Origin: a virus
Taxonomy: Duplodnaviria; Caudoviricetes
IMG/VR virus record: IMGVR_UViG_3300043640_000359
Location: 1 to 59,537 of that record
Strand: one strand, 5' to 3'
DNA length: 59,537 bases
Part shown: positions 6,949-50,975 of the stretch, piece after piece
How the letters are laid out: each line of letters opens with the position of its first letter
How positions within the stretch are numbered: the first letter of the stretch is position 1
Notes under the pieces: generated by a model
The model's input: only the letters and a program-made list of their open reading frames with translations
What the model was told of the DNA's origin: nothing
Database searches by the model: none
Made by a program: the position numbers and the translations under genes

Positions 6949-7315
6949 GCCGCGCACACCGGGGTGGATTGTCCTCACGGGGTTGATCCTCGGGAGCTAC
7001 ACCGCGTTCATTGCCGGTCAGCGGCCGGACACGTGGTATCTGTACATCGGCATCCATGTCGTGGCGTCATGGGCCATGTTGCGGTGGTTCTTCGGTCCCG
7101 AGCCCACGCCAGTCCATCACTGCGACTGTGACTGTCATGGCGACGAGGACCGCGGCCACGCACCGGTGCTGCCACGACCGCTCATCACGCGTGCAGAGAT
7201 GGAACCGATCTGTGCGTGGGCACGGACACACTACGACATAGAGTTCACCGACGATCACCTAGCCCACTACGCCGACGCCATGGGCTTCCGCTACGTGCGA
7301 GAGGAGAAGACATGA
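6938..7315 (+). CDS. Membrane protein
   Basis: Two hydrophobic segments and an HHCDCDCH motif. Confidence 0.55.
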   Translation: MTTRPRTPGWIVLTGLILGSYTAFIAGQRPDTWYLYIGIHVVASWAMLRWFFGPEPTPVHHCDCDCHGDEDRGHAPVLPRPLITRAEMEPICAWARTHYDIEFTDDHLAHYADAMGFRYVREEKT

Positions 7316-7887
7316 AGCTGACGTTCACGGTAACGATGGAGATCGACGATGCGGAGGTCGAGAAGAACAACACACGGCGCACGCGCCAGGGACGACAAGT
7401 GCTGTTGCCGCTCGACATTGCACGCGACGCGTTGGACCAGGGATGCCGACACAACTTCCACATTGCCTCGCACCGCATCGAAGAGGTGGACATGGGGATG
7501 GCCCGCGCGCCGCTGCCCAACGACAACCTCCTGTCGTTCGAACGGTTCACCAAGACGAACGTGGCCCGCTGCGAGGCGCACGCGCAGGCCATCACGGCGT
7601 GGGGACCCGATCAGTGGAGCAACGCCATGGCCGGCGAGACCGGTGAAGCCTGCAATCTCACCAAGAAGATGTCACGCATCTGGCCGGCCAACCAGTTCAA
7701 ACAGAGCTGGAACAAACCCGAGGACCAACGCATGGACACGTTGGTGCAGAAACTGAAACGCGAGATCGGCGATGTCGTCATCTACGCGGACCTGCTGGCC
7801 GTGCGCGTCAACCTCACGCTCGAGGATTGCGTGCGCACCAGCTTCAACGAGAAGTCAGCTGAGCTTGGTAGCGCTCATCTGCTGTAA
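7312..7887 (+). CDS. MazG-like nucleotide pyrophosphohydrolase
   Basis: [11 protein letters not shown] and [14 protein letters not shown] acidic pairs; FNEKS end. Confidence 0.8.
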
Positions 7888-7918
7888 GCCGTTCACCCGC
7901 TACCATCGGAGAGGCACC

Positions 7919-8599
7919 ATGCAACGTAGAATCGTTTGGATCAGCGTGCTCGTCGCGGCGCTCTACACCGTCGGAGCTGGCGCACAGAGCAACCCGTTCA
8001 GTTCGCCGCAGACCAACAACCCGCCGTCGTGCACCACCTGCCCGGCCGGACCCAAGGGCGACAAGGGCGACCGCGGCTATCAGGGCGTGAAGGGCGACCC
8101 CGGCCCGAAGGGGTCTACCGGCCCACAAGGACCCGCAGGGCCACAAGGACCGGCCGGTCCTATGGGTCCTCAGGGTCCCGAAGGCGTGGGGCTTCCTGGG
8201 CCACAGGGACCGCAAGGACCTCCGGGATCGGCCACGCCGCTCAACCCGCCCACGGTGGACCCGCGCTTCGGCCATATCGACCGGCGCATTCCGCCGCTGG
8301 GCGCAATCGATGTCGTGGAAACCATCTGGCGCTTCGACACCGGCATCAACGACCTGATCATCATGTATCGCGGCGTGGACGCGACACCCACGCGCGCCGC
8401 ATCCCCAGGGATCGTGGCTGTGGTGGACAACAACCGACCCATCCCCTGCTACCAGATGATCAGTCGCGGTGGTGAAGGGGGACGTGTGTGGGATCGCATC
8501 AACCCGCACACCATCCGGCAGTTCAACTACTTCGACAACGAAACCGGCTACTGGTGCATCCTGCCGTGGGACGTCACGCTGCCCTGCACCCCGTTCTAA
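7919..8599 (+). CDS. Secreted collagen-like protein
   Basis: Signal peptide ending AGA; CTTC; about 19 Gly-X-Y triplets; C-terminal globular part. Confidence 0.75.
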
Positions 8600-18807: not shown

Positions 18808-19410
18808 ATGGCAGTCAGAACACACACTCAATCGTCGTATGACCCACTGGTGCTCACACACCCAGTGATGATCGTCGGTGATCTTGATGTCTCCGTGAGG
18901 TCCGCAATTCTTGATCATGTCGGTCATGTCTTCAAGAAGATCGAACGTACCGACGACGGGTTGACACTTCACGTCGATCAAATCGATCCATCGGCGATGT
19001 CCGGGAAGAAGAAATGGGTGTGGTTGAAGGTGATCATGGCCCTCATCCGCATCCACAAGGCCGCTGCCTACGTGTCGTTGACTCTTCGTCGTGAGGACCG
19101 ACATAAACTATACCAGGCTCTTCGTTGTGTTTACGAGACGCCCGCGCCACGATGGAAAGCTTCATACGTAATCACTGCGTGGTTGGGTGGATTCTCGAGA
19201 TTTGAGGTGTCGTCAGAAGACGCGACGGACGATCAGATTGACGCGTGGAAACGGCAACGCCGGTCCAACAAGGTTTCACTGAAGAGTTTTCATAAGAGAC
19301 ACCCAGAACGGAAACCTAGTCATCGCGCTCGATACATCGCCAAGAAAGCTGACAAGCCACGAGATCCGTTGTCGTCGGTGAAAAAGATCGTCAAGGCGGT
19401 GCAAGCATGA
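18808..19410 (+). CDS. Basic hypothetical protein
   Basis: ACGGA leader; 200 aa; visibly lower GC3 than neighbours. Confidence 0.65.
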   Translation: MAVRTHTQSSYDPLVLTHPVMIVGDLDVSVRSAILDHVGHVFKKIERTDDGLTLHVDQIDPSAMSGKKKWVWLKVIMALIRIHKAAAYVSLTLRREDRHKLYQALRCVYETPAPRWKASYVITAWLGGFSRFEVSSEDATDDQIDAWKRQRRSNKVSLKSFHKRHPERKPSHRARYIAKKADKPRDPLSSVKKIVKAVQA

Positions 19411-20438
19411 AGCTCAAAGTGAAACGCAAGCCGGCCGTCACAAAACAGGAGCTGACGCCCGAGCAACAGATCGGAAACTTCTACCGGCCCGAACGCGACG
19501 GTGTCACGTTCTCGCTGCTGTCGAACTGGACCAACTGCCGGGAGAAGGCGTTGCAATCGCTCCTGGGGATGACCAGCAAGGCCGAAGGCATGGGTCGTGT
19601 CTACGGCACCATCGTGCATGCCATCGACCAGCAGGCGCGCGACGAGCATAAGGCCGGCAAATTGAAGAAGCCTCCATCTAACGAATGGATTTCAATCCAG
19701 ATCAAACGTCTCGAGGCTCTCTGGAAAGAAGAGAATCCTCTAGCCAGCAAAGAGACGCTCGAGAATCTCGAGATGTCGCTGCTACTCGCTGACAACGTCA
19801 TGCCATACTACTTCAGGTATTGGCAAGACGATTTCAAGAAGATGAAGCATACGCGCATCGAGAGCACCTTCAAGCTACCGGCACCCGGCACCTTTCTCCG
19901 TGGCAAGATGGACGGTAACTTCGTGATGGTCGACGCACCCAAGAGCGGCTCATGGTTGCTGGAGACAAAGACGAAGTCCCGACTAGGAGACGCCGGTGAA
20001 ACAAACCTGGTGGACACACTGGGCTACGAGCTACAGGTGAACACCTACCTGGTCGCGCTGAACGAAATCGACGGCGTGACGCCGGCCGGCGTGCTCTACA
20101 ACATCGTGCGTCGGCCCGGTCTGCGACCCAAGGTGGGCGAGTCCCCGGTGCAGTTTGCCGAGCGCGTCACCGAGGACGTGAAGAAGCGACCGGACTTCTA
20201 CTTCATTCGCTTCCGCATGTCGGTGGAGAAAGGCGAGATCCGCGAGCAGGGCGTGAAGCTGCATGCCCGTATCCAGGAGTTCATGAAGTGGTATCGCGGC
20301 GAGAGCGCACACTACAACAACTCTGACCACTGCGAGAACAAATACGGCACCTGCGAGTTCATCAAGATCTGCGCGCACGGTGATCGCAGCGGTCACTACA
20401 AGCGGCCCACGGTGTTCCGCGAGTTGGAGGAGCTGTGA
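19407..20438 (+). CDS. PD-(D/E)XK exonuclease (RecB/Cas4-like)
   Basis: YGTIVH, GKMDG, ETKT, Q..Y and a Cys cluster. Confidence 0.8.
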   Translation: MKLKVKRKPAVTKQELTPEQQIGNFYRPERDGVTFSLLSNWTNCREKALQSLLGMTSKAEGMGRVYGTIVHAIDQQARDEHKAGKLKKPPSNEWISIQIKRLEALWKEENPLASKETLENLEMSLLLADNVMPYYFRYWQDDFKKMKHTRIESTFKLPAPGTFLRGKMDGNFVMVDAPKSGSWLLETKTKSRLGDAGETNLVDTLGYELQVNTYLVALNEIDGVTPAGVLYNIVRRPGLRPKVGESPVQFAERVTEDVKKRPDFYFIRFRMSVEKGEIREQGVKLHARIQEFMKWYRGESAHYNNSDHCENKYGTCEFIKICAHGDRSGHYKRPTVFRELEEL

Positions 20439-21271
20439 TGAAAGCGGAGCTGCTGATCCTCGGTGGTGGGTTCGTGGGCCAGTTGATCCACACGGTGTTC
20501 CCGCATGGCACCGTGTTGGACTGGCGAGCTGCGCCGCGCAACGGTGAGACGATGGTGCAGAACCGCTCCTTCGGTCCACAGTATTTGTGGCAACCGTTGG
20601 AGGGATTCGACTGCACACCCTTCAAGATCTTCACCACCGTCGACGGCGCGTTCGCGCGGCCAGAGAACGTGGCACGCTACAAAGCCAAGGTGGGCAAGGG
20701 TCACGAGACGGACTGGGGGATGCAGTTCGAGACCGTCACCACCGGCTATGACATCGCGATGCCGGATGTGCCGGTGTCCTACGGTCATCGCGCCACACAC
20801 ATCGATGTGGCATCGCGCACGGTCTACTTCGATGGGCAACCGCCGCGCGTGTACAGCCGGCTGTTCTCCACCATCCCGTTGTATGCGCTGTTCGAGTTGC
20901 TCGGCCACGTGGACATCGCACAGGACTTCAGCTACGCGCCCATCTTCGTCGCCAGTGGCTACGACCAACGTCGGCCCAGCAACGGGTCCATGTGGGTGGA
21001 CTACCGCAGTCAGCCGGCGGACCCGGTCTACCGTGTGACCTCTCGGCATGGCACCATGCACGAGGAAGCCTTGCAGCCGCTGGCGCCGCGGAGTTGCCGA
21101 CGGATCATCCCCGGCAAACTCTACCCGCACGCACACGTGGCAGCGATGCACGCGGTGTTGGCGTCGTACAACATCTTCTGCTTCGGCCGCTACGCCACGT
21201 GGGATGGTGACGAGCTGGCCCACCAGACCTACGACAAGATTCGCAGCTGGCAGGCGGTGGTCAATGACTGA
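20438..21271 (+). CDS. FAD-dependent oxidoreductase or mutase-like protein
   Basis: N-terminal ILGGGFVG, STIPL and C-terminal FGRYATW, as in UDP-galactopyranose mutase/HemY-like proteins. Confidence 0.65.
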   Translation: MKAELLILGGGFVGQLIHTVFPHGTVLDWRAAPRNGETMVQNRSFGPQYLWQPLEGFDCTPFKIFTTVDGAFARPENVARYKAKVGKGHETDWGMQFETVTTGYDIAMPDVPVSYGHRATHIDVASRTVYFDGQPPRVYSRLFSTIPLYALFELLGHVDIAQDFSYAPIFVASGYDQRRPSNGSMWVDYRSQPADPVYRVTSRHGTMHEEALQPLAPRSCRRIIPGKLYPHAHVAAMHAVLASYNIFCFGRYATWDGDELAHQTYDKIRSWQAVVND

Positions 21272-22247
21272 ACAAACCGAACTGGAACGAATCTGGGAGG
21301 ATCAGCGCGCGTTCAACGCGTTGCTCCGTCCCGCTCCTACGGACGAAGCGGAGCGTGGGCAGCTGACCAAGGACATGGTCATCCTTCTGACGGACGAGCT
21401 GCACGAACTCCTCCGCACCACGGTGTGGAAGAAACATCGCAACACTCCGCACCGCGGCAATCGACCGCACACCATCGAAGAGCTCGCGGACGCCTTCAAG
21501 TTCTTCATCTCGCTGTGCCAGGTGCACGACGTCACGGTGGACCAGCTCCTGAGGATGTACTGGGACAAAACAGCCGTGGTCAAGCAGCGCTATGACAGTG
21601 AATGGAAAGCGCAGCTAACCGACTGCGTGGTCGTGGATATCGACAACGTCATTGGCGACTACATCACGTGCATATGCCAGTGGCTCGCTATTCAGTATCC
21701 CAGCATCCCCGTGTCCAAGCTAAACGAGATTCGGCGTGAGGGTCGGTGGGTGAACGCGCAGAGCCTCGGCATCCCCGAGCCGCGGTGGCAGCTGATCAAG
21801 CACACGTTCCGCACGAGCGGCGCGAAGCGCGACATGCCGGTGTTCCCCGATGCCAAGCGCTTCCTCGAAGGGATGCGCGCCATGGGATTGCAAATCGTGT
21901 TGCTGACCAGCCGCCCGATCGACGGCTACCCCAACATGTACACCGACACCATCCTCTGGCTGCAGAAGAGTGGCCTGCTGTTCGACCACGTGTGGTGGGC
22001 CCACGACAAACCCGAGGCGCTGCAGAATCGCGACATTGTGGACCACGTGGTGGCCGCAGTGGACGATGACATGAAGTTCGTATCGGCGTATCGCGCGGCC
22101 GGTATCCCGGTGTTTCATCTGGTGCGTGGCGCATCGGTGACGGGCGTAGGCGCGAGCAACGGCGTGCACACGGTGTCGTCGTTGCATCACATTCAACCGA
22201 TCTTGACTCGACTGATCCTGGAGGCAACGGATGTACGACGACGCTAA
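21264..22247 (+). CDS. Dimeric dUTPase/MazG-like domain fused to HAD nucleotidase
   Basis: DELHELL..WKKH..EELADAFKF, then VDIDNVIGD, LTSR, K and VDDD. Confidence 0.8.
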   Translation: MTEQTELERIWEDQRAFNALLRPAPTDEAERGQLTKDMVILLTDELHELLRTTVWKKHRNTPHRGNRPHTIEELADAFKFFISLCQVHDVTVDQLLRMYWDKTAVVKQRYDSEWKAQLTDCVVVDIDNVIGDYITCICQWLAIQYPSIPVSKLNEIRREGRWVNAQSLGIPEPRWQLIKHTFRTSGAKRDMPVFPDAKRFLEGMRAMGLQIVLLTSRPIDGYPNMYTDTILWLQKSGLLFDHVWWAHDKPEALQNRDIVDHVVAAVDDDMKFVSAYRAAGIPVFHLVRGASVTGVGASNGVHTVSSLHHIQPILTRLILEATDVRRR

Positions 22248-23454
22248 GCACCGGCCGCATGGCACGCATTTCGGCGAGCCACCGTCCACAGAGATTACCT
22301 TCGGACCCGACTCGCTCGACGTGACGCTCGACACGTGGGGTCCGAAAGAGAATCTCTTCCCCACCATCTACGACGCGCTGCAAAGCAACTGGGGCGATAG
22401 CCCAAGTCGCACGGCTGCACACTACGACCGTCGCGACGCACACGAAGCGCCGCTGGGATCGTGGGAGCGGCAGACCGGGTGGGACCTGTTGACCGAGAAG
22501 CAGCGCACCTACGTCGAGGCGTGCTTCGCCGGCCGCACGCTCCAGCAGATTCTCGAGATGCTGACGTTCACGTTCACCATCGACGGCGTGACACGCGCCT
22601 TCACCCACGAGTTCGTGCGTGCGCGTATTGGCTCCGGTTTCATGCAGCATGGTGGCCGTGACAACGACTGGCGACACCGCCCGTGGACCATGCCCGAGAC
22701 CATCCGCCGCGCCTGCATCGCCAGTGGCGCAAACCCCGGCGATCTCGAGGAGCGCGACCACTGCCTCGTGGATATGCGGCCCATCATCGATCTGATCGAC
22801 AAGGAACGGGTCACGGCGATGGATCCGGACCCGCTCGCCACGGTGATCGATCGTCACCTGATGCGTACCAAGCGGCTTTATGCCGCACTGGTCGACGCGG
22901 GCATCCCCTGGCAGGATGCTCGGCGCGTGTTGCCCATCGGGTGCCAGACCTACATCCACGGCACGTTCAACTACGTGGCGCTCAACGGCGTACTGGCCAA
23001 CCGCTTGGAGCATATCATGGACTGGGAGATCAACTGTGTCACGCAGCTGATGCTCCGGCAGATCCACATGCACTGCCCGCCGCTCCTTGCGAAGTATCTG
23101 GGGAGCCACAGCGACAAGGCGCGCAAGGCCGCATTCGCCGGCTTGGATAGCTGGCCGCCGGACGGCAAGTATCCCAACCCGTTCGAGATCTGCGTGTGTG
23201 GGCACGGCCGCGGCGCGCACACCGGCCAGTGGGAGCACCCGCAAGCCACGCAGGATGGTTGTGGCGCGTGCGCAAGCGGTGGAACCCTGTGCCTGCACTA
23301 CCAGGCGACGGACGGTCGCCAGAGGCAACACAGGCGCGAGCAGAACCCGTTCTGGATCCTCTCGCCGGCTGCTATGGTCGGTGGCCCCATCGAGTGGATC
23401 GGAACCAACGGCGTCTATCCGGAAGACCTCCGGCCTGGCGCACGGAAGGAGTAG
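22231..23454 (+). CDS. thyX: Divergent ThyX (flavin-dependent thymidylate synthase)-like protein
   Basis: FTIDGVTRAFTHEFVRAR, GIPWQDARRVLP, WEIN; C-terminal Cys/His cluster. Confidence 0.75.
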   Translation: MYDDAKHRPHGTHFGEPPSTEITFGPDSLDVTLDTWGPKENLFPTIYDALQSNWGDSPSRTAAHYDRRDAHEAPLGSWERQTGWDLLTEKQRTYVEACFAGRTLQQILEMLTFTFTIDGVTRAFTHEFVRARIGSGFMQHGGRDNDWRHRPWTMPETIRRACIASGANPGDLEERDHCLVDMRPIIDLIDKERVTAMDPDPLATVIDRHLMRTKRLYAALVDAGIPWQDARRVLPIGCQTYIHGTFNYVALNGVLANRLEHIMDWEINCVTQLMLRQIHMHCPPLLAKYLGSHSDKARKAAFAGLDSWPPDGKYPNPFEICVCGHGRGAHTGQWEHPQATQDGCGACASGGTLCLHYQATDGRQRQHRREQNPFWILSPAAMVGGPIEWIGTNGVYPEDLRPGARKE

Positions 23455-23457
23455 GCT

Positions 23458-24339
23458 GTGGCTGTCGTCAAGAAACTGAAGGGTGCCGGTACCGTCGGCA
23501 AGAAGAAAGTGAAGGAGGTCGACGACACCCCGGCCTTCAAGATTTCGAAGGCGCTGTCGGTGCCGGTGGACAATCTCGCCGGCTACATCATCCTCCTCTT
23601 CGGCGAGAAGAAGATCGGCAAGACCACACTCGCCGCGCAGATGGGGAAGAACTACATCGCACGGTTCGAAGAGGGCACCAAGGCACTGCGCGTCTACGGC
23701 GATACCATCGGCTCGTGGCGCGATGCCAAGTCCATGGCGAAGCAGATGCTGAAGGATACCTTCTACGACACCGTCACCGTGGACACCATCGAGAAGATGC
23801 ACGCCATGTGCGACCGATGGGTGTGCCAGAAGCTGGCTATCGGCCATCTCAGCGAAGCGGACTGGGGTCAGGGCTACCAGATGGTGCGGCAGGAGATCGC
23901 CGAGTTCATCGACACGCTCGCGAAGAGCGGCAAAGGCGTTGTGCTGATCAGCCATGCGGATGTCCGCGAGATCACCGCACGCGACGGCAACAAGTACGAT
24001 CGGCTCACGGCGTCGGCACCAAAGATCTCCGCGGAGGTCTGCGAGGCGCTGGTGGATGTGTGGGCCTACTACGGCTACGAGGGTCGGCGACGCGTGCTCC
24101 AGATTCTGGGAGATGACCACGTCGCCGCAGGCCACCGACTCGACGGCCGCTTCCGCACACCGGACGGCCGACCGCTTCGACTCATCGACATGGGCAAGAC
24201 GCCGCAGCAGGGGTACAAGAACCTACTGGCCGCGTTTGCCAACGAGTTCACGCCAGTGCGTGAGACCGACGCAGACGACGATAGCGTCCCGTCTGTGGCG
24301 AAGAAGGCGAAGAAGAAGACGCTGCGTCGCCGCGCGTAG
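23458..24339 (+). CDS. AAA_24 / Sak4-like ATPase
   Basis: FGEKKIGKTT, VDT and LISH; beside the SSB-like gene. Confidence 0.75.
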   Translation: MAVVKKLKGAGTVGKKKVKEVDDTPAFKISKALSVPVDNLAGYIILLFGEKKIGKTTLAAQMGKNYIARFEEGTKALRVYGDTIGSWRDAKSMAKQMLKDTFYDTVTVDTIEKMHAMCDRWVCQKLAIGHLSEADWGQGYQMVRQEIAEFIDTLAKSGKGVVLISHADVREITARDGNKYDRLTASAPKISAEVCEALVDVWAYYGYEGRRRVLQILGDDHVAAGHRLDGRFRTPDGRPLRLIDMGKTPQQGYKNLLAAFANEFTPVRETDADDDSVPSVAKKAKKKTLRRRA

Positions 24340-24374
24340 GGTGCGGCATCTACCCTCAGTCACAGGAGAGCACA

Positions 24375-25268
24375 GTGAAGAAACCGAACAAAGGCACCGC
24401 GGCGAAGAGCATCGATCTCAAGACCCTGATGGGGTCGGGTGGCGTGAAGCGGCTGAAGGCCGCGCGTGAGAAAGCCGCTGAGGGTGGTGGCGTCACCGAG
24501 TTCGAAGACGGCCGCTACATCGCCAAGTGCACGAGCGCCACGCCGTGCAAGTCGCAAGCCGGACGCCCGCAGGTGAAGTTCGTGTGGGTGTTCGTGGATG
24601 GCGAGTACGAGAAGAAGGAGAAGTGGTCCTTCCAGGGCATCGACACGGACGACGGCATGGGCTACCTCCTGATGGATCTCGACCGTCTCGGCTACGACGT
24701 GTCGGAGGTCGAGTCGCCGGAGGAAGTGCAGGAAGTGCTCGACGCCGTGGGCAAGGACAAGCCGGTCGCGCGCATCTCGCTGAAGACCAGCGGCGACTTC
24801 CAGAACGTCCGCATCCAGAAGCTCGTCGACCTCGACGACGCCGAAGAGGAAGAGGACGACGAGGAGGAAGACGAGGCCGAGGTCGAGGAAGAGAAGCCGG
24901 TGAAGAAGGCGAAGACCGCGAAGGGCAAGAAGGCGAAGCCCGAGCCGGTGGAAGAAGAAGAGGAGGAGGAAGAGGAAGAAGAAGAGGAAGCCGACGAGGA
25001 GGAAGAAGAGGACGACGAAGCCGCCGATGACGAAGAAGGTGGTGACGAACTCGATGTCCAGGTCGGCTCCCACGTCACCGTGCAGACCAAGGCTGGCAAG
25101 AAGAAGGCCGAGATCACGGACATCCTCGAGGACGAGAACGCCGTGAAGGTGCTCACCGAGGACGGCAAGAAGTTGAAGCTGTCCGCGGAGAAGATCATCA
25201 CGGTGGACGACGTCCCCGAGGAGCCGAAGAAGAAGGCCAAGAAGACCGCGGCCAAAACCAAGAAGTAG
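24375..25268 (+). CDS. DUF669-like ssDNA-binding protein with long acidic tract
   Basis: DGRY.AK..SQAGRPQVKF..VDGEY OB-like part; poly-Glu/Asp linker. Confidence 0.65.
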   Translation: MKKPNKGTAAKSIDLKTLMGSGGVKRLKAAREKAAEGGGVTEFEDGRYIAKCTSATPCKSQAGRPQVKFVWVFVDGEYEKKEKWSFQGIDTDDGMGYLLMDLDRLGYDVSEVESPEEVQEVLDAVGKDKPVARISLKTSGDFQNVRIQKLVDLDDAEEEEDDEEEDEAEVEEEKPVKKAKTAKGKKAKPEPVEEEEEEEEEEEEEADEEEEEDDEAADDEEGGDELDVQVGSHVTVQTKAGKKKAEITDILEDENAVKVLTEDGKKLKLSAEKIITVDDVPEEPKKKAKKTAAKTKK

Positions 25269-25292
25269 ATCGGGTCTGACGGCGGTGTAATG

Positions 25293-25321
25293 CTACGAGC
25301 CGGCCGAGTGCCGGCTCGTAG
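25293..25321 (+). terminator. Stem-loop after the SSB gene
   Basis: 12-bp stem CTACGAGCCGGC/GCCGGCTCGTAG; no clear U-tract. Confidence 0.5.
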
Positions 25322-25345
25322 TGTGTTCGCGAATGGGGTGACACA

Positions 25346-25756
25346 ATGGCTGCGCTGGATCTCGGTCAACAGTACGACTACTTCAACTACGTCTACGAGT
25401 GCGCCACCGACGTGCTCGACAACCGTGCTAAGGATTACGCACCAGGAGGCGCACCACTCCTCAACGTGCTGGACACCTGTGTGCGCCGCAAGCTGACACC
25501 GTCCCAGGTGCTCGGTGTGCTCCTCGACAAACAGACCACCGCGCTCGACCGCTTCTTCAAACACGACGGCCGGCTGGACTCCGATTCCCTTCGGAGCCGC
25601 ACCATTGACGCGCTCAACTATCACGTGTTCATGCTCTTCTGGGTAGAGCGGCGCGCGGACATCTGTGAGGCGTGGCGCGTCTATTGGGACGCGCAACCCA
25701 ACAGTCAGCGAAAATCCAAGACCCTCCAAACCATCGATCGTCTCCGACAGCTATGA
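25346..25756 (+). CDS. Nmad1/DUF1599-like all-alpha nucleotide-modification-associated protein
   Basis: LDNRAKDYA...IDALNY pattern; ATGA-coupled to the polymerase. Confidence 0.5.
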   Translation: MAALDLGQQYDYFNYVYECATDVLDNRAKDYAPGGAPLLNVLDTCVRRKLTPSQVLGVLLDKQTTALDRFFKHDGRLDSDSLRSRTIDALNYHVFMLFWVERRADICEAWRVYWDAQPNSQRKSKTLQTIDRLRQL

Positions 25757-27828
25757 CCCGCTTTCGGATTCGCGGTCCGATTGCCTGGGACACGGAAGGC
25801 ACTGGACTCTCGCCGCACGGCAAGTGGAAGACCGTGTGCTACAACTTCGGCAACGCCAAGAAGCCGGACCTCGCGATTCGTCGTGTGGTGCCGGCGAGAC
25901 CGTTCGCCTTTGCGTTTTGCAACACCCAGAACCAAACGCTCTACGTGCGTGGTGAGGTGGATCCGTTCACCCGCACCGTAGCGTTCACCAAGTCGCAACA
26001 GCAGCAGATCACCGACATCCTCGCGGACGAGCGCATCCCGAAGATCGCGCACAACGGCCGCTACGATATCGGTGTGTCTGAAGCGCAAGGGTTCGTCTTC
26101 CGTGGCGAAGCGATCGACACGATGATTCTCGGGCACACCTACACGGGTGGCAGCGAGTTGACCTACGCGTTGAAGCCGCTGACAAAGAAGTACCTGGACT
26201 ACGGCGACGACGACGAGAAGATTCTGGTGAAGGCCACGCACAAGGCGCGGCTCCTCGCCAAGAAGATGCGGTGGTCCTACGCCAACGAAAAGCTCGGCGG
26301 ACGCGAGCCGGCCAAAGCCGACTACTGGCTCGCACCCTACGAGATGTGCGAGGACTACGCCACCCGCGATGCGGTTCGCGCCATGCTGCTCTACCTGATG
26401 TGGTGGCCGCAGGTTAGCGACGACCAGAAGCGAAAGATCATATGCGAGCGTGAACACAAGTTGTTCTGGACGCTCAAACGGATGGAGGATCGCGGCGCAC
26501 GGGTGCACCCCAAGGATGTGCAGCGGCTGAAGAAGTTCTACCAGGCCTACAGCGACAAACAGATTGCCGTCGCCGTGAAGAACGGCGGTGCGGGAATGAA
26601 CTACAGTAGCACCCCGCAAATGTCGGCAAAGTTCTACGACGACCGTGGACATGAACCCGTGTTCACCGACGCCGGCAACTACTCCCTCAACGGCGAGATG
26701 CTCCTGAAGCTCGCCACCGGCTACACGCTCGACGCCGACGTAGACGAACGGAAGCTGAAGAAGCTCCGCACGCTCTTCGGCCGCTCGCTGGTGTTCGACC
26801 CGAAGTCCGAGGCGTGGCTCATTCCGGCGGACCCGCTAGCAAAGAGCGTACTGGAGTACAAAGCGGCCCAACAGACCATCTCCAGTTTCTTGGAGGTCTA
26901 CGAACGCTGCTGGGTGAAGGAAGCGGCCGACACCTACATCCTGCATCCTAGCTACCGTCAGAACGGCACGAAGACCGGCCGCCTCTCCTGCAGCGATCCC
27001 AACTTGATGCAGGTGGCCAGCGAGACCACCGGCCGTCGCAAGGCCGACATTCAGAGTCGGCCGCGCGAAGCCTTCGGCCCACGACCCGGCTACGTGTGGT
27101 ATCTCCCCGACTACTCGCAGATCGAGGTGTGGCTCTTCGCACACATGTCGGGCGAAGCACGCATGATGGCGCAACTGCTGAGCGGGATGGACTACCACGG
27201 TGGTATCGCCAAGCAGGTGTTCGGGCATCTGGCCGACTTCGCCGAGCACGCCGACTACTATCGCAAGTGCGCCAAGCTGATCATGTTCGCCAAGCTGTAT
27301 GGTGGCGGTATCGACAAGCTGGCCAGTCTCCTGAAGATGGCCCGCAGCCTGGCCGCCGAGTTCATCTCCCAGTACGAGGCGTCGCTCCCTGGTGTGCGGG
27401 CGTTCATGGACGAGATGATCGACCGTGCCAAGGTGGACGGCGAGATTGAGAATCCATTTGGCCGGCGCTACATCCTCGACCACGGGTTCGAATACCGCGC
27501 CACCAACTATATGATCCAGGGCACGGCCGCTGACGTGATGAAGAATGCCATGATCAACGTGGACGACATGCTGCGTCGCGAGTGGAACGACGAAGCCTAT
27601 CTCCTGTTGACCATCCACGACGAGCTGGTGATCGAGGTGCCGTATGCCTTGCACAGCCGTCGCCTGATGTACGCTATCGTGCGTGCCATGCAGCGCGATA
27701 CCCAGACGCTGGGGATGCCGTGTCATCTCCCGGTAGATATGAAGTTCGTTACACGCCGTTGGTCGTGGACCACGAAAGTGGATCTGCCCAAGGACGTGCG
27801 CGGTGGCGTACTGTTGAAAGCCGCGTAG
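25753..27828 (+). CDS. polA: DNA polymerase family A with 3'-5' exonuclease
   Basis: DTEGTG, HNGRYD, YATRD, TGRLS, DYSQIE, K..F...YG, NYMIQGTAAD and IHDE. Confidence 0.95.
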   Translation: MTRFRIRGPIAWDTEGTGLSPHGKWKTVCYNFGNAKKPDLAIRRVVPARPFAFAFCNTQNQTLYVRGEVDPFTRTVAFTKSQQQQITDILADERIPKIAHNGRYDIGVSEAQGFVFRGEAIDTMILGHTYTGGSELTYALKPLTKKYLDYGDDDEKILVKATHKARLLAKKMRWSYANEKLGGREPAKADYWLAPYEMCEDYATRDAVRAMLLYLMWWPQVSDDQKRKIICEREHKLFWTLKRMEDRGARVHPKDVQRLKKFYQAYSDKQIAVAVKNGGAGMNYSSTPQMSAKFYDDRGHEPVFTDAGNYSLNGEMLLKLATGYTLDADVDERKLKKLRTLFGRSLVFDPKSEAWLIPADPLAKSVLEYKAAQQTISSFLEVYERCWVKEAADTYILHPSYRQNGTKTGRLSCSDPNLMQVASETTGRRKADIQSRPREAFGPRPGYVWYLPDYSQIEVWLFAHMSGEARMMAQLLSGMDYHGGIAKQVFGHLADFAEHADYYRKCAKLIMFAKLYGGGIDKLASLLKMARSLAAEFISQYEASLPGVRAFMDEMIDRAKVDGEIENPFGRRYILDHGFEYRATNYMIQGTAADVMKNAMINVDDMLRREWNDEAYLLLTIHDELVIEVPYALHSRRLMYAIVRAMQRDTQTLGMPCHLPVDMKFVTRRWSWTTKVDLPKDVRGGVLLKAA

Positions 27829-47150: not shown

Positions 47151-47348
47151 CTACTTCTGAACTCCGCCGGTCTGCTGACGGTTGTTGCCTGGCTGCGCCG
47201 TACGCGTGTCCTGCGTCACGTGCCGCTCGGCAATGCCCTTGGCCACCAGCTTCGAGGCGGTGTCCGAGGAGAACCCGGCGAGCTCACCCACCGCGTACGG
47301 CTGATACGACTTCTTGAACTTCACGATTTCCTTCTGCGTTTCCATCAC
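47151..47348 (-). CDS. Small head-associated protein
   Basis: VKFKK..YAVGELAGF..ASKLVAKGIAE. Confidence 0.65.
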   Translation of the reverse strand: MMETQKEIVKFKKSYQPYAVGELAGFSSDTASKLVAKGIAERHVTQDTRTAQPGNNRQQTGGVQK

Positions 47349-48543
47349 TGGCCTCCTGTACCGACGGTTTGTGTTCGTGCTGTTCGAGCACGTGGGTCAG
47401 TGTGTCGGAGAACACCTCCCCAATAGCGTGCCAGTCGAAGCGCGGCTCCACGGCGCGTGCATAGGCACGACGCGCATAGTCTTCGCGCATCTCCCGGTTG
47501 CGATAGAGCGTATCCATGGCGGCAACAAACGCGGTCTCGTCCGGAATGCCGCCGATGGTATTGGGTCCCTGGTTCACGACGAGCGCGGAGCAGGGGACGA
47601 CCCACGCCGCGTTCGCCATCCACTCTTGACAGGCGGACCATCCCCCCACGATCTGTGCACGGCGACATGCCATGCCTTCGTGTTGCGTGAGGCCCCACCC
47701 CTCACCAACGGCCGTCGAGATCTGGACATCGAAGCTGTTGTAGATGGCGGCGAGGATCTGCGCGTTGACCCCCACACCCACTTGCATCTTGGGATTCGTG
47801 ACGATGATCCGCTCCTCGACACCCAGGTAGCGGGCCAGCCGGATGAAGTCGATCCCCGCGGCGTCGTCGATCGATGCGTGGAGATACAGATACGCATTGT
47901 CCGGCTCTCCTGCCTGACGCCACCAGCGCGCGAAGTACAACACCGACAGGTCCATTCGCTTGCGCGTGCTGTTGCGGTTCACGTTCCCGAAAATGAACGC
48001 GTCCGCGGGCAACTGACCGAGACCCGCCATCGCGCGGGCATCCTTCTGGTCCATGGGTCGAAACACGTTGCTATCGACCCCGTGCGGAATCACCGAGATG
48101 GGGCCACGGTAGCCGCTCTCGTGCATTTCCTCGGTGCCGAAATTCGTGTACATGATGGCGTGCGCCAGACCCCCCAGGTCCTTACCCCACCGCATGTTGC
48201 GACCGTCCACCGGCATGTAGCCAATCAACGGTTGCGGCATAGCGTAGAACTCCATGGCCTTGACGAACTCCACCACGTTCCAGGGGTCGTTGTTCACCAG
48301 CACCACGTCGGGCTTCTCAGCGTCGACCACCTTGTCGAGCAGGTTCAGACCCCACACGTCACCACCCGAGAGCGCCGGCCAGATGTTGTAGGGAAACTTG
48401 TGCGGGAAGCCGGCGTAGTTCACACCCAGCACCGCCACGTCCCACCCCGCGTCCATCAGGCGCGGCAACACCGAGTGCGTGACACGCGCAAAGCCGGTGT
48501 GGATCACCGCGTCGCCGATCCAGAGCACCTTAGGCTTTTGCAT
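47284..48543 (-). CDS. Glycosyltransferase, GT4-like
   Basis: TGFARV, PHGVD, NRN..RK and EGWGL...EGMAC. Confidence 0.9.
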   Translation of the reverse strand: MQKPKVLWIGDAVIHTGFARVTHSVLPRLMDAGWDVAVLGVNYAGFPHKFPYNIWPALSGGDVWGLNLLDKVVDAEKPDVVLVNNDPWNVVEFVKAMEFYAMPQPLIGYMPVDGRNMRWGKDLGGLAHAIMYTNFGTEEMHESGYRGPISVIPHGVDSNVFRPMDQKDARAMAGLGQLPADAFIFGNVNRNSTRKRMDLSVLYFARWWRQAGEPDNAYLYLHASIDDAAGIDFIRLARYLGVEERIIVTNPKMQVGVGVNAQILAAIYNSFDVQISTAVGEGWGLTQHEGMACRRAQIVGGWSACQEWMANAAWVVPCSALVVNQGPNTIGGIPDETAFVAAMDTLYRNREMREDYARRAYARAVEPRFDWHAIGEVFSDTLTHVLEQHEHKPSVQEASDGNAEGNREVQEVVSAVRGG

Positions 48544-49447
48544 AACGCACCATCTCCCACCAGTCCGTCATGAGACGGTCCCACGCAAACCTATCGGCCA
48601 CATGCGCGCGCTCCGCCGGCGTCACCGGTCGTGTCTTGCCACCAAAGAGCGTGGCCAAGTCACTTTCCACATCTGCCGGTGCGCGCTCGGTGATGTAGTC
48701 CGCGTGTTCACCGAACCAGTGACGGTAGTGCGGCGCGTCCAGCATCACCGGCCGCGCACCACACATGAGACCTTCCAACGCCGGCATCTCGAAGCCTTCG
48801 ATGCGCCGCATCCCGGCCACCCACCGGCACTGGTTGTACTGCTCCACCAGCTGACGGTCCGAGATGCCCGACATGAACGACACGTTCTGGTAGCCGGCGT
48901 CGAGCACTTGCTGCAGGACTGGGCCGAGATGGAACACGCGGCCGTCGTGAGAGGACGCCGCGGAAATGCACTCCATCACGCACTCAGTGTCGGCAATGTA
49001 GCCGCTGGTCCCCACCATGTACGACTTGCGTGGCATAGGACCCGGTGTGAAGATGCTCGGCTCCGCGCCCATGGGTGCGTGGAGGAAGGTGAAGCCCAGC
49101 AGGTCGTCCGGCTGCAACAGGCCGGTCTCCACTGCCAGTTTTGGCAGATCGTAGTAGCTCCACACCACGCGCGCACCGCGCCAGAGGTCGAGCCACCGTG
49201 GGGAGGCCGGGTTCTCTGTGGTCCGGTAGCAGTACTGCACCACCCCGTACGGTTTGCCGCTGGCCAGCCAATCGGCCACGGGTCCGTCGAGCGAGCCCAG
49301 GCCGATGACGTGGAACACGGCGAAGTCTGCACTCGCCATGCGCGGCGTGAACAGCACGTCGTTCGGCGCGTGCGCCTTCATGGCGCCGGCCACCCGATGG
49401 ATGCCCTGGCTCAGATGACTAGGCACCACCTCTACGAAGGCCTTCAT
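48530..49447 (-). CDS. Glycosyltransferase, GT-B fold
   Basis: EGFEMPALEGLMCGARP (EX7E motif). Confidence 0.8.
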   Translation of the reverse strand: MKAFVEVVPSHLSQGIHRVAGAMKAHAPNDVLFTPRMASADFAVFHVIGLGSLDGPVADWLASGKPYGVVQYCYRTTENPASPRWLDLWRGARVVWSYYDLPKLAVETGLLQPDDLLGFTFLHAPMGAEPSIFTPGPMPRKSYMVGTSGYIADTECVMECISAASSHDGRVFHLGPVLQQVLDAGYQNVSFMSGISDRQLVEQYNQCRWVAGMRRIEGFEMPALEGLMCGARPVMLDAPHYRHWFGEHADYITERAPADVESDLATLFGGKTRPVTPAERAHVADRFAWDRLMTDWWEMVRYAKA

Positions 49448-50133
49448 GGGTGCCTCACAATCTGCGACGCGTCGCACGCGATGGTGTAACCTTTGGCGCG
49501 GACATCCTCACCGAAGCCGATGAGGCACGCGTCGTTGATAATGCGGCATTCGCGCGCCACATATCCGCGCATCAGGAACGCCGAGCCCACGCTGTCCATG
49601 TCGCGGGTGAGCTGGCCGTCGTGCCGGCACTCGCCGTGATACGGATAGAACGGACCAAAGCGATGCCCGCTCTTGCGGAACACGAAGATGTCGTAGAACG
49701 CCGCACCCGCCATGCAGAGCGGCGCAATGACATCCACCGATTCCAACATGATGCGCATGGCAAGCGACTCCACGGTGGTGGGGTCCCACTGCAGATCGCT
49801 CTCCACGTACCATACCAGGTCGTCGGTCTCGCCTACCGACGCCAAGCCGGCATTACCGAGCGCCGACAATGCCCGGAGTCGCGCGGGTTCCTCTGTGCTG
49901 CCGAACACCGGACCGCCGTGAGAATGTTCGACCAGCTGCAGGCGGAGGCCATGGCGTAGCGCCTCGAACTGGAGGACGTCAGCCGTGTTGTCAACGCAGT
50001 CACCGTAGACGGCAATGACACGCACCCCGTACGAAAGGCGGAGGACGTCGCGAAGCGCGGCGCAGCGCGCGAGGAACGCTTGTGCTTGGCCATGGGCGCT
50101 GTTCCGGAAGAAGGACAGGATGACGAGGTTCAT
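49444..50133 (-). CDS. Glycosyltransferase, GT-A fold
   Basis: GDCVDNT, WYVESD, FYD and DSVGS. Confidence 0.7.
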   Translation of the reverse strand: MNLVILSFFRNSAHGQAQAFLARCAALRDVLRLSYGVRVIAVYGDCVDNTADVLQFEALRHGLRLQLVEHSHGGPVFGSTEEPARLRALSALGNAGLASVGETDDLVWYVESDLQWDPTTVESLAMRIMLESVDVIAPLCMAGAAFYDIFVFRKSGHRFGPFYPYHGECRHDGQLTRDMDSVGSAFLMRGYVARECRIINDACLIGFGEDVRAKGYTIACDASQIVRHP

Positions 50134-50975
50134 CGCGGGTCCTCCATTTTGGCATTGCGGAGATAGGGCAGGTCGCCCATCGCCGCTTCACGCTCTTCAG
50201 CCGCGCGGACAACCTCGCGAAACGGCATCGTCGTGGTATCCTCGCCCACGGTCCACTTGGTGTTGAACGTGGTATTGAGCCGCTTGGCGGGCACGCCTCC
50301 CCAGATCTCGCCGGGTGGTACGTCCTTTGTCACCACCGCACCGGCACCAATGCGTGCGCCTTCGCCGATGGTGAGACCGGGCAGCACGGTGGCGCCGGCA
50401 TAGATGGTGGCGTTACGGCAGATGCGCGTCACGTAGCGCTGCACCATCTGCTCGGCGGCTGGGGCAACGGCGCTGCAGCTGACTGCCTCGGGGAGATTAC
50501 TCCCACTAAGCACCCGAGCGCCTGACCCAAAACTACTCCCATCTTCAAGGATCGTGGTCCCGCCACCGATACCAATATGACAGAAGCTGGCGATATGCAC
50601 GTGCCGCCCGATGCGCATACCGGTGCCACCTTCGAGTTTGACGAATGCGTCAATGCGTGCCTCGTGGTCAATGTAGATCATGTCCGCACGGATGGCCACG
50701 ATCTGGTCATCCACCAGGGTCTTGCCAGCGCGAAAGCCGAAGGCGTTGGCAAACGGCGGTGTGGCGCTCTTGCGACGCTGGCTCTGCTCGTACTGGTATA
50801 CCGCGTCCTCGACCGTGTCGAACGGACCAGCGTACAGATCGGGCTTCACGTCGTTGCGCAGATAGACACCCGGATGGGCCCACGGGCCATCGGGTCCTAC
50901 CACCAGGAACACCGACACCGGCGGGAACTCGCTGATGCGCTGATGCGCACCTTCATATTGCAGGTCAGGAACCAT
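50130..50975 (-). CDS. Hexapeptide-repeat (LbH) sugar acyltransferase
   Basis: IGRHVHI, VLPGLTIGEGARIGAGAVVTKDVP and WGGVPAK. Confidence 0.85.
   Translation of the reverse strand: MVPDLQYEGAHQRISEFPPVSVFLVVGPDGPWAHPGVYLRNDVKPDLYAGPFDTVEDAVYQYEQSQRRKSATPPFANAFGFRAGKTLVDDQIVAIRADMIYIDHEARIDAFVKLEGGTGMRIGRHVHIASFCHIGIGGGTTILEDGSSFGSGARVLSGSNLPEAVSCSAVAPAAEQMVQRYVTRICRNATIYAGATVLPGLTIGEGARIGAGAVVTKDVPPGEIWGGVPAKRLNTTFNTKWTVGEDTTTMPFREVVRAAEEREAAMGDLPYLRNAKMEDPR

Follow-up and report, generated by a model that had tools for sequence, protein, structure and literature searches.

What does a phage make with a ThyX-like protein in which much of the ThyX active site has been replaced and whose gene overlaps those of a flavoprotein and a nucleotide hydrolase? 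This question is raised by a linear record of 59,537 bases from an uncultured soil tailed phage (IMG/VR record IMGVR_UViG_3300043640_000359, positions 1 to 59,537; CheckV completeness, ∼70%; GC content, 58 to 66%), the whole of which is referred to here as the window. Three overlapping genes at 20435 to 23454 form a cassette encoding a flavoprotein (FADp), a fusion of all-alpha NTP-pyrophosphatase and HAD-phosphatase domains, and the ThyX-like protein. The analyses described here indicated that this cassette is one copy of a widespread, phage-only three-enzyme set and a strong candidate for a route to a modified DNA base. That its product would be a dUMP (deoxyuridine 5′-monophosphate) substituted at C5 other than dTMP (thymidine 5′-monophosphate) is an evenly balanced proposition.

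The cassette lies in an array of plus-strand open reading frames (ORFs) at 19407 to 20438, 20435 to 21271, 21264 to 22247, 22231 to 23454 and 23458 to 24339, with successive overlaps, starting from that between the first ORF and the FADp gene, of 4, 8 and 17 nucleotides. The fusion was taken to start at the ATG at 21264, within a longer ORF listed as 21048 to 22247. An earlier note on this DNA, made from the sequence, had described coupled genes for a flavin adenine dinucleotide (FAD) protein, a pyrophosphatase-HAD fusion and a ThyX-like protein, and this arrangement of overlapping ORFs was confirmed. The parts of the cassette are as follows.

20435 to 21271, plus strand: FADp, a UDP-galactopyranose mutase (UGM)/amine-oxidase-type FAD-fold flavoprotein of 277 to 278 amino acids (profile, fold and motifs)
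21264 to 22247, plus strand: fusion of a MazG/dimeric-dUTPase-like domain and a HAD domain, 327 amino acids (PHROG matches and DIDNV motif)
22231 to 23454, plus strand: ThyX-like protein, 407 amino acids (Pfam Thy1; fold by AlphaFold2 [AF2] and Foldseek)
22618 to 22659, plus strand: altered ThyX signature and active-site loop, residues 130 to 143, RARIGSGFMQHGGR (coordinates computed from the gene start)
23191 to 23298, plus strand: variable Cys/His insert of the ThyX-like protein (alignment of relatives; low model confidence)

The ThyX-like protein matched the Pfam family Thy1 (E, 3.5e-20; 73 bits, with a cut-off of 24.8), and its score against the NCBIfam thyX equivalog (TIGR02170) was 62.5 bits, under the cut-off of 87.9. 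The AF2 model had a predicted local distance difference test score (pLDDT) of 90.2, and the top Foldseek matches were the ThyX proteins of Thermotoga maritima and Mycobacterium tuberculosis and PolB (E, ∼1e-9; probability, 1.00; template modelling score over the target [TMt], ∼0.75 for T. maritima). The protein consists of a ThyX fold core flanked by clade-specific N-terminal (residues ∼1 to 85) and C-terminal (residues ∼290 to 407) extensions, which are conserved in relatives.

Residues were mapped by counting along the profile alignment to T. maritima ThyX, for which a 12-residue tag offset puts the RHR motif at 78 to 80. The ThyX signature RHRx7S is not present; residues 130 to 143 read RARIGSGFMQHGGR, with one extra residue. 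Five arginines of the active site, which bind and activate dUMP in ThyX, are kept (Arg78, Arg80, Arg90, Arg147 and Arg174 of T. maritima are R130, R132, R143, R231 and R258 here), of which R130 and R258 were invariant in an alignment of 81 sequences, and the Gln/Glu residues at T. maritima positions 75 and 86 are also retained. Five other residues are replaced, namely, His53 by Arg102, His79 by Ala131, Asn85 by Met138, Ser88 by Gly141 and Tyr91 by Asp144. The reading of the signature in the earlier note was therefore right as to the motif His (Ala131) and the active-site Ser (Gly141), and the remodelling reaches further, to His53, Tyr91 and Asn85. In canonical ThyX, His79 contacts FAD. Ser88 and Tyr91 are reported to be 'strictly conserved' and critical, with Tyr91 serving as acid catalyst or gate and its mutation slowing flavin oxidation ∼1,000-fold, while His53, held in place by Tyr91 and Asn85, is reported to stack on folate and flavin (PMC11940539, PMC8316439). 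As the ThyX fold and the five arginines are kept, the protein of the window should still bind a pyrimidine 5′-monophosphate.

An exhaustive HMMER search with the ThyX-like protein detected 683 representatives at an E value of ≤1e-3 and 32 at ≤1e-30; listed matches of at least 190 amino acids were taken into the alignment of the motif. All 31 of the motif-covering matches ranked above P0050 lacked the motif His, having mostly Thr and otherwise Ser, Gln or Ala at this position, and none had Tyr at position 91, most of them reading QHGGRDNDWRH. The His-to-Ala change in the window is, on this alignment, the local form of a clade-wide loss of the His. Conservation of the replacement loop QHGGRDNDWRH across the clade indicates a selected active site rather than decay, and this loop and both extensions are strongly conserved across sequences that are 40 to 58% identical. 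Conserved replacement of the whole residue set argues for altered chemistry or cofactor handling. Searches of 185,579 prokaryote species genomes with motif patterns (GGR[DN]NDWR and others, including single-protein patterns) detected no relative of the clade, although distant forms could escape such patterns. The window's clade was the most rebuilt form of ThyX found in this analysis and, hence, could yield yet another base.

The earlier note had also described a Cys/His cluster appended to the protein. The cluster exists (C321, C323, H325, H330, H336, C344, C347, C354 and H356) but is a variable insert inside the conserved C-terminal extension rather than an appendage, being present in the query, in loci L002 to L004 and L010 and in matches P0009 to P0012 and absent from L005, L007 and P0013 to P0025. 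The insert region (residues 321 to 360) was modelled with low confidence (pLDDT, 48 to 63). A parallel to this insert is seen in the 433-amino-acid ThyX-like protein of Streptomyces phage Wentworth (L099, 1231 to 2532, minus strand; RSR in place of RHR), which carries a C-terminal double Cys motif of the CxxCxGxG type. Other forms of the protein were encountered among the matches. A further viral group (e.g., P0068, P0071, P0075 and P0081 to P0084) reads ...SQQC(S/T)GD.DWRH, with DWRH kept and no equivalent of Arg90. A distant representative of 700 amino acids, P0095, has an intein inserted in its sequence (domains Hint and Intein_splicing), and P0142, of 426 amino acids, has an MmgE/PrpD N-terminal domain joined to the C-terminal half of a Thy1 domain; neither of these long or fused matches yielded a functional clue.

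FADp had no match in Pfam, PHROG or NCBIfam. A profile search detected 135 homologs, and the neighbours of FADp in the Atlas were 96 to 100% viral. The FADp profile (A3), made from 60 sequences (the window protein and 59 of the 120 listed matches), had eukaryotic UGMs as its best PDB matches (E, 6.9e-8). Similarly, Foldseek analysis of the AF2 model (pLDDT, 94.2) placed UGMs first (E, 5.9e-11; template modelling score over the query [TMq], 0.70; TMt, 0.41), with protoporphyrinogen oxidase and renalase next in rank. An N-terminal GGGFVG motif (residues 9 to 14), invariant in the family, conforms to the GxGxxG pattern of an FAD-binding Rossmann domain; a second motif, GRYATW..DELAH, is present at the C terminus; and an invariant Tyr-Arg pair was aligned by HMMER to the FYR of the Trypanosoma cruzi mutase. 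The full three-domain architecture of UGM is not present, FADp having 278 amino acids and a TMt of 0.41 compared to UGMs of 466 to 510 amino acids. On the basis of the model, FADp is a trimmed UGM-fold flavoprotein and lies outside Glf as defined by architecture. Assignment of FADp as a lyase similar to MnmC1 or PaMx11 gp47 was considered and rejected, as the best sequence and fold matches were UGMs and not DAO-type enzymes.

The N-terminal part of the fusion (residues ∼1 to 113) matched NTP pyrophosphohydrolase PHROGs (phrog_173, E of 3.6e-9; phrog_12184, E of 3.5e-7), and the C-terminal part (residues ∼119 to 319) matched HAD/PNK-phosphatase PHROGs (phrog_420, E of 3.6e-9; phrog_415, E of 9.4e-8), with HAD motif I present in the translation as DIDNV. 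Pfam matches to dUTPase_2 (E, 0.017; 15.9 bits, with a cut-off of 22.9) and Hydrolase (E, 0.094) were below the cut-offs. The tblastn matches were to actinophage genes annotated as 'phosphatase', 'nucleotide pyrophosphohydrolase' and 'deoxyuridine triphosphatase' and covered ≤50% of the query. Three all-alpha pyrophosphatase-like proteins had been proposed to reshape the nucleotide pool of this phage; family evidence was obtained for only one of these, the fusion.

The gene order FADp, fusion, ThyX-like was observed in 8/8 IMG/VR loci with upstream sequence and 13/13 with downstream sequence. In a wider comparison, 77 IMG/VR loci were recovered with the clade alignment, scanned with hidden Markov models (HMMs) from A2, A3 and A4 and de-duplicated by ThyX-like sequence. 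FADp was located upstream of the ThyX-like gene in 28 of the 29 de-duplicated close-clade loci having at least 2.3 kb of upstream sequence, and the MazG-HAD fusion was present in 27 of these 29. A distant FADp homolog was also found upstream in all 12 loci of a second, Pbunavirus-like ThyX group, overlapping or abutting the ThyX gene in 6 of them, whereas FADp was detected in none of the seven loci with other ThyX types. Co-occurrence of ThyX variants with the FAD gene, which the earlier note had put forward as a check, was thus strongly positive. Across differing lineages, the cassette was always located in the replication module by the phage polymerase, whether PolA, DnaE or a Pbunavirus polymerase. 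New in these results is that FADp, which is closest to UGM, is by the comparison of these loci the specific genomic partner of ThyX-like genes lacking the motif His.

A tblastn search of cultured phages with FADp detected no match at an E value of 1e-3, and the link to these phages emerged only by profile comparison and HMM searches. The 'oxidoreductase' of Streptomyces phage Wentworth is a homolog of FADp (hhalign probability, 96.3%) and is followed by a HAD 'phosphatase'. Relatives of this oxidoreductase were detected by tblastn in 126 records (Gordonia, 46; Microbacterium, 36; Mycobacterium, 32; Streptomyces, 9; Arthrobacter, 2; Nocardia, 1). The long ThyX-like form without the motif His had a matching distribution (Gordonia, 46; Microbacterium, 36; Mycobacterium, 28; Arthrobacter, 2; Nocardia, 1), the match being one of genus counts and not of record lists. 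Canonical ThyX was found in 1336 phage records. The flavoprotein and ThyX-like genes overlap in Microbacterium phage NarutoRun, and in Mycobacterium phage PBI1 the oxidoreductase gene is followed by the HAD gene, with the ThyX-like gene 7 kb further on. Wentworth gp54, which follows the oxidoreductase-phosphatase pair, was considered as a hidden ThyX and rejected, the ThyX of this phage being located elsewhere. A literature search for the DNA chemistry of these actinophages found no description.

A set of the same type is present in the Pbunaviruses. In phages PB1, F8 and 14-1, the genes near that of the DNA polymerase include those for a HAD fusion, for a ThyX-like protein of the RTR type and for an FADp-like protein, which scored 27.6 to 28.9 bits in searches of six sequences with the A3 profile and has a GRFATW motif, shared with the FADp family. 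The genes, in the order flavoprotein, ThyX-like protein and HAD fusion, are as follows.

PB1: gp68, gp61 and gp59
F8: ORF065, ORF059 and ORF057
14-1: gp66, gp60 and gp58

The Pbunavirus-type flavoprotein was detected in 362 phage records (Pseudomonas, 292; Escherichia, 27; Serratia, 9; Rhizobium, 8; Xanthomonas, 6; and others). The family extends to 206-kb Rhizobium phages, and the GenBank names of two of the homologs (H223/H225) are 'galactopyranose' in Serratia phage vB_SmaM_Hera and 'polysaccharide deacetylase' in Rhizobium phage RHph_Y65. The virion DNA of F8 and 14-1, once believed to be unmodified, is reported in a preprint to contain thymidine derivatives of 362 and 390 mass units, which replace approximately one-quarter of the T residues, in a TG context, and were interpreted as sugar-alcohol and cyclised aldopentose thymidines (bioRxiv 10.1101/2025.03.31.646159). 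The same preprint reports that host END nucleases sense the sugar-derived thymidine of Pbunavirus DNA. We infer, as a candidate link, that the Pbunavirus cassette makes this modified thymidine. Between F8 (L104; 362 mass units) and 14-1 (L103; 390 mass units), the flavoproteins are 97.3% identical, the ThyX-like proteins 93.8% and the HAD fusions, the most divergent of the three, 80.8%.

These observations suggest a pathway in which the ThyX-like protein would bind a pyrimidine 5′-monophosphate and the cassette would act on dUMP at C5 before DNA synthesis. The ThyX-like protein has lost His53, which stacks on folate in canonical ThyX, as well as the motif His79 and both Ser88 and Tyr91, a pair that helps to resolve the flavin-carbon adduct; the UGM-fold flavoprotein would act as the dedicated partner of this protein. 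The fusion would trim nucleotide or sugar-phosphate intermediates, converting dNTP to dNMP and removing phosphate. The product would be a C5-substituted dUMP, most likely one bearing a sugar or polyol rather than plain dTMP, and a related base may be present in the phage of the window. This product would then be phosphorylated by host kinases and incorporated by the phage PolA, and the modified base would protect the genome from host nucleases. The proposal in the earlier note that the enzyme, along with pyrophosphatases and the polymerase of the phage, may make something other than dTMP has thus gained real but indirect support, from the loss of Ser88, Tyr91 and His53, from the co-occurrence with FADp and from the modified thymidine of F8 and 14-1. 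Nothing was found pointing to a hydroxymethyl or methyl pyrimidine, the products named in that note.

Several observations weigh against this pathway. The window's phage and its close relatives are known from metagenomes only. Shared synteny of one phage lineage confounds the association seen in the close clade, to which L073, with no FADp found within 6 kb upstream, is an exception; the second ThyX group and the cultured phages are independent lineages. As the ThyX of the Pbunavirus-like group is only ∼25 to 31% identical to the ThyX-like protein of the window, the products need not be alike. The main text of the preprint on F8 and 14-1 has no mention of thymidylate, ThyX or flavin and names no biosynthetic genes (bioRxiv 10.1101/2025.03.31.646159). 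That only ∼25% of T is replaced, and in a TG context, points to a sequence-selective step at the DNA level, which a nucleotide-level cassette alone does not explain. The dUMP-contacting arginines, all of which are kept, would be equally needed by a dTMP synthase. Lastly, neither a dedicated dNMP kinase nor DNA-level hypermodification genes were detected among the scanned ORFs, most early ORFs being without a family match.

The alternative that survives best, although we consider it unlikely, is ordinary dTMP supply by a two-component ThyX that has lost efficient self-reduction or tight flavin binding, with FADp as an NAD(P)H-linked redox partner and the MazG-like domain as a dUTPase feeding dUMP. 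Retention of the ThyX fold and of the five mapped arginines is consistent with this explanation, as is the finding of no other thymidylate synthase in the record; a ThyA-type enzyme (PF00303) had no match at an E value of ≤1 in this record, which is ∼70% complete. The structures nearest to FADp include NAD(P)H-binding UGMs (5vwt and 5vwu) and renalase, and genes for DNA-level modification were not recognised among the scanned ORFs. His79, His53 and Tyr91 all concern flavin or folate handling, for which a partner could compensate; however, His53 stacks folate and Ser88 and Tyr91 are reported to be critical for carbon transfer (PMC11940539, PMC8316439). A one-protein canonical ThyX suffices in 1336 phage records, so that the need for a partner would want explaining, and fusion of a phosphatase to the pyrophosphatase works against a simple supply of dUMP or dTMP. 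Furthermore, modified thymidine is reported for F8 and 14-1, phages with this type of cassette (bioRxiv 10.1101/2025.03.31.646159).

A second alternative is that the Pbunavirus base is due to other genes, with the cassette reshaping nucleotide pools (destruction of dUTP/dNTP, or salvage) or making a non-DNA nucleoside in the manner of PolB in polyoxin biosynthesis, and with the sugar genes of the window serving virion glycosylation. This was judged improbable. One of the top structural matches is PolB, a neofunctionalised ThyX to which UMP/dUMP methylase activity has been ascribed (PMC5954106), and a 25% substitution in a TG context fits a post-replicative enzyme (bioRxiv 10.1101/2025.03.31.646159). 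The sugar genes are an amino-sugar tailoring set at 47284 to 52093 (minus strand), located away from the cassette in the structural module, with the head genes on one side and the head-tail adaptor gene on the other.

50975 to 52093, minus strand: DegT/DnrJ/EryC1 aminotransferase (E, 3.6e-108)
50130 to 50975, minus strand: hexapeptide acyltransferase
49444 to 50133 and 48530 to 49477, minus strand: two ORFs without a family match
47284 to 48543, minus strand: GT4-like glycosyltransferase

This set could function in virion glycosylation or in sugar supply for DNA modification. The constant position of the cassette in the replication module next to the polymerase, across very different lineages, argues against this alternative, as do the absence of the clade motif patterns from 185,579 prokaryote species genomes and the lack of any hint of a secreted or small-molecule product. 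A third alternative, a catalytically dead ThyX-like protein with a structural or regulatory role, would account for the loss of four residues important in canonical ThyX but is very improbable given the strong conservation of the replacement loop and both extensions at 40 to 58% identity, the retention of all the substrate-binding arginines and the translational coupling of the gene to two enzymes.

For a C5-substituted dUMP, the reading preferred here, a source of the substituent can be proposed by analogy with UGM, in which N5 of the reduced flavin acts as a nucleophile on the sugar C1. In this suggestion, which we regard as quite doubtful, the carbon electrophile used jointly by the ThyX-like protein and FADp would be an aldose, a sugar phosphate or a nucleotide sugar instead of methylene-tetrahydrofolate. 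The sugar C1 would first become bound to N5 of the reduced flavin, in the UGM manner, and would next be attacked by C5 of dUMP, activated in the way known from ThyX; the flavin would leave, with hydride transfer or ring closure giving a C-C-linked polyhydroxyalkyl or C-glycosyl deoxyuridine; and the sugar phosphate would be removed by the HAD domain. With an aldose as the electrophile, the absence of the folate-stacking His53, the obligate pairing with a flavoprotein and both Pbunavirus masses would be accounted for. By mass arithmetic, deoxyuridine (dU) minus H plus 1-deoxypentitol-1-yl (C5H11O4) gives 362 and dU minus H plus hexosyl (C6H11O5) gives 390. If correct, this would be a new route to a DNA base, in which a rebuilt thymidylate synthase would carry out the reductive C-glycosylation of a nucleotide.

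No close cultured relative of this phage was found: nucleotide matches to 50,697 phage records covered ≤3% of the region, all of them short. The one public sequencing run found to contain the window is a soil metagenome, possibly the source of the record, and no RNA run was listed as containing it. The minus-strand half carries terminase, portal, protease/major head protein and head-tail adaptor genes, and the plus-strand half carries genes for an SNF2 helicase, a RuvC-like protein, a Sak4/AAA_24 ATPase, a family A polymerase and a primase-helicase. The genes around the cassette, and one further gene of the plus strand, are as follows.

19407 to 20438, plus strand: upstream neighbour, 343 amino acids; no Pfam or PHROG match; directly upstream of the flavoprotein gene in related loci
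23458 to 24339, plus strand: Sak4/AAA_24 recombination ATPase (Pfam AAA_24, E of 4.3e-32; phrog_124); conserved downstream neighbour by synteny
24375 to 25268, plus strand: 297-amino-acid protein, encoded between the Sak4-like gene and PolA, with a long stretch rich in Glu/Asp
25346 to 25756, plus strand: small protein of 136 amino acids; overlaps the likely PolA ATG at 25753
25672 to 27828, plus strand: family A DNA polymerase with a 3′-5′ exonuclease domain (Pfam DNA_pol_A, E of 1.6e-64; DNA_pol_A_exo1; phrog_17)
7312 to 7887, plus strand: 191-amino-acid protein without a match in Pfam, NCBIfam, PHROGs or PDB sequences

Not all the labels given to these genes in the earlier note held. A Cas4-like identity for the upstream neighbour obtained no family match in Pfam or PHROG. 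The product of the gene at 7312 had been called a MazG; no Pfam, PHROG, NCBIfam or meaningful PDB-sequence match was detected, and tblastn located its homologs in two related phages, L017 and L022, adjoining the RuvC-like gene inside the replication module. For the gene at 25346 to 25756, described as Nmad1-like and coupled to PolA, the polymerase and the overlap of the small ORF with its likely start (ATG 25753, inferred from translation) were upheld but the Nmad1 identity was not: the gene had no Pfam match at an E value of ≤10, and PF07659 had no match in the record. Nmad1 corresponds to DUF1599 (PF07659), for which the lone lead was an Atlas cluster similar to this gene, with DUF1599 on 10% of the cluster members. 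Homologs of this gene precede PolA in L009, L010, L016 and L025. The acidic run of the 24375 to 25268 protein gave the sole nucleotide matches of the region to cultured phages, which were Erwinia jumbo phages, and these are probably compositional; the N-terminal part of this protein is conserved in related loci. In the early region, the gene at 7772 to 8599 (plus strand) encodes a 275-amino-acid protein with a collagen-like Gly-X-Y repeat (Pfam Collagen; E, 3.1e-8).

Literature searches detected annotation mentions of the cassette but no description of its function, and no ThyX-based thymidine hypermodification with a UGM-fold partner. FADp relatives are present in ∼490 cultured phage records (126 plus 362) and in many metagenomic phages, and the carriers include the Pbunaviruses, which are widely used in Pseudomonas phage therapy. 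The cassette is the obvious candidate for biosynthesis of the sugar-derived thymidine of these phages. If this is correct, it would be the first hypermodified-pyrimidine route based on ThyX rather than ThyA and would provide a new role for a UGM-fold flavoprotein. Practical uses would include predicting whether phages resist restriction and other defences, and producing modified DNA enzymatically.

Comparison with known systems places these proteins more precisely. The ThyX-like protein shares with canonical ThyX (T. maritima TM0449 and M. tuberculosis; PF02511) the fold, the Pfam match, the five arginines and the Gln/Glu residues at positions 75 and 86. It differs in the five replaced residues (His53, His79, Asn85, Ser88 and Tyr91), the single residue inserted into the signature, extensions of ∼85 residues at the N terminus and ∼115 at the C terminus, a sub-cut-off equivalog score and the accompanying flavoprotein gene (28/29 close-clade loci). 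FADp resembles UGM/Glf (PDB 4dsg, 3ukh and 1wam) in its best profile and structure match, the FAD Rossmann motif, the C-terminal GR..W and the Tyr-Arg pair. However, UGMs have 370 to 510 amino acids whereas FADp has 278, with a TMt of ∼0.41 and a large part of UGM missing, and FADp is virus-only, has no Pfam match and is paired with ThyX-like genes rather than glycan genes.

The Pbunavirus cassette resembles that of the window in its UGM-like flavoprotein, which belongs to the FADp family, in a ThyX-like protein that lacks the motif His and in a fusion of HAD and all-alpha domains, all encoded next to the polymerase. Its ThyX-like protein, however, is 305 amino acids long and still has a Thr/Ser near position 88; in the fusion, the HAD domain comes first, the reverse of the order in the window; and the genes are spread over ∼4.4 kb instead of overlapping. 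In the actinophages (PBI1, NarutoRun, Gordonia phage LilyPad and Wentworth), the order is oxidoreductase, phosphatase/hydrolase (or methyltransferase) and, further on, ThyX-like. This set shares with the window a homologous flavoprotein, a HAD partner (with a DxDGT motif) and location in the replication module. The long ThyX-like proteins of these phages have RQR, RTR or RSR in place of RHR but, unlike that of the window, keep Ser88 and have Phe/Ala at position 91; the polymerase is DnaE-like rather than PolA; and the MazG-like protein is separate (NarutoRun gp54, by reading of the sequence) rather than fused.

Thymidine hypermodification itself is a known kind of DNA modification (PMC8989533, PMC13326640). 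In SPO1, M6, ViI, PaMx11 and PhiW-14, it involves a ThyA-type dUMP hydroxymethylase, a 5-hydroxymethyldeoxyuridine (5-hmdU) DNA kinase, an aGPT-Pplase and tailoring enzymes, including the flavin-dependent lyase PaMx11 gp47 (PMC8989533). The cassette has in common with these pathways phage pyrimidine C5 chemistry starting from dUMP, accessory nucleotide hydrolases and a flavoprotein, which in the 5-hmdU pathways is a tailoring enzyme (PMC8989533). Unlike the genomes with these pathways, the window record, ∼70% complete, had no ThyA match (PF00303) at an E value of ≤1, and neither the kinase nor the aGPT-Pplase was recognised; PaMx11 gp47 is MnmC1/DAO-like, whereas FADp is UGM-like. The 5-hydroxy-dCMP synthases of RB69 and DLP3 are ThyA homologs that switched from folate to flavin, and a genuine UGM participates in the glycosylated-base pathway of RL38J1 (Nucleic Acids Research 2026, PMC13326640). 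The RB69 and DLP3 synthases provide a precedent for an enzyme of the thymidylate-synthase superfamily changing its cofactor and product to start a glycosylated DNA base, but they belong to the ThyA superfamily and act on cytosine, with the sugars added on DNA via an ether oxygen. What the window contributes beyond these systems is the ThyX clade with the greatest remodelling, together with the fusion of accessory domains and the association with PolA.

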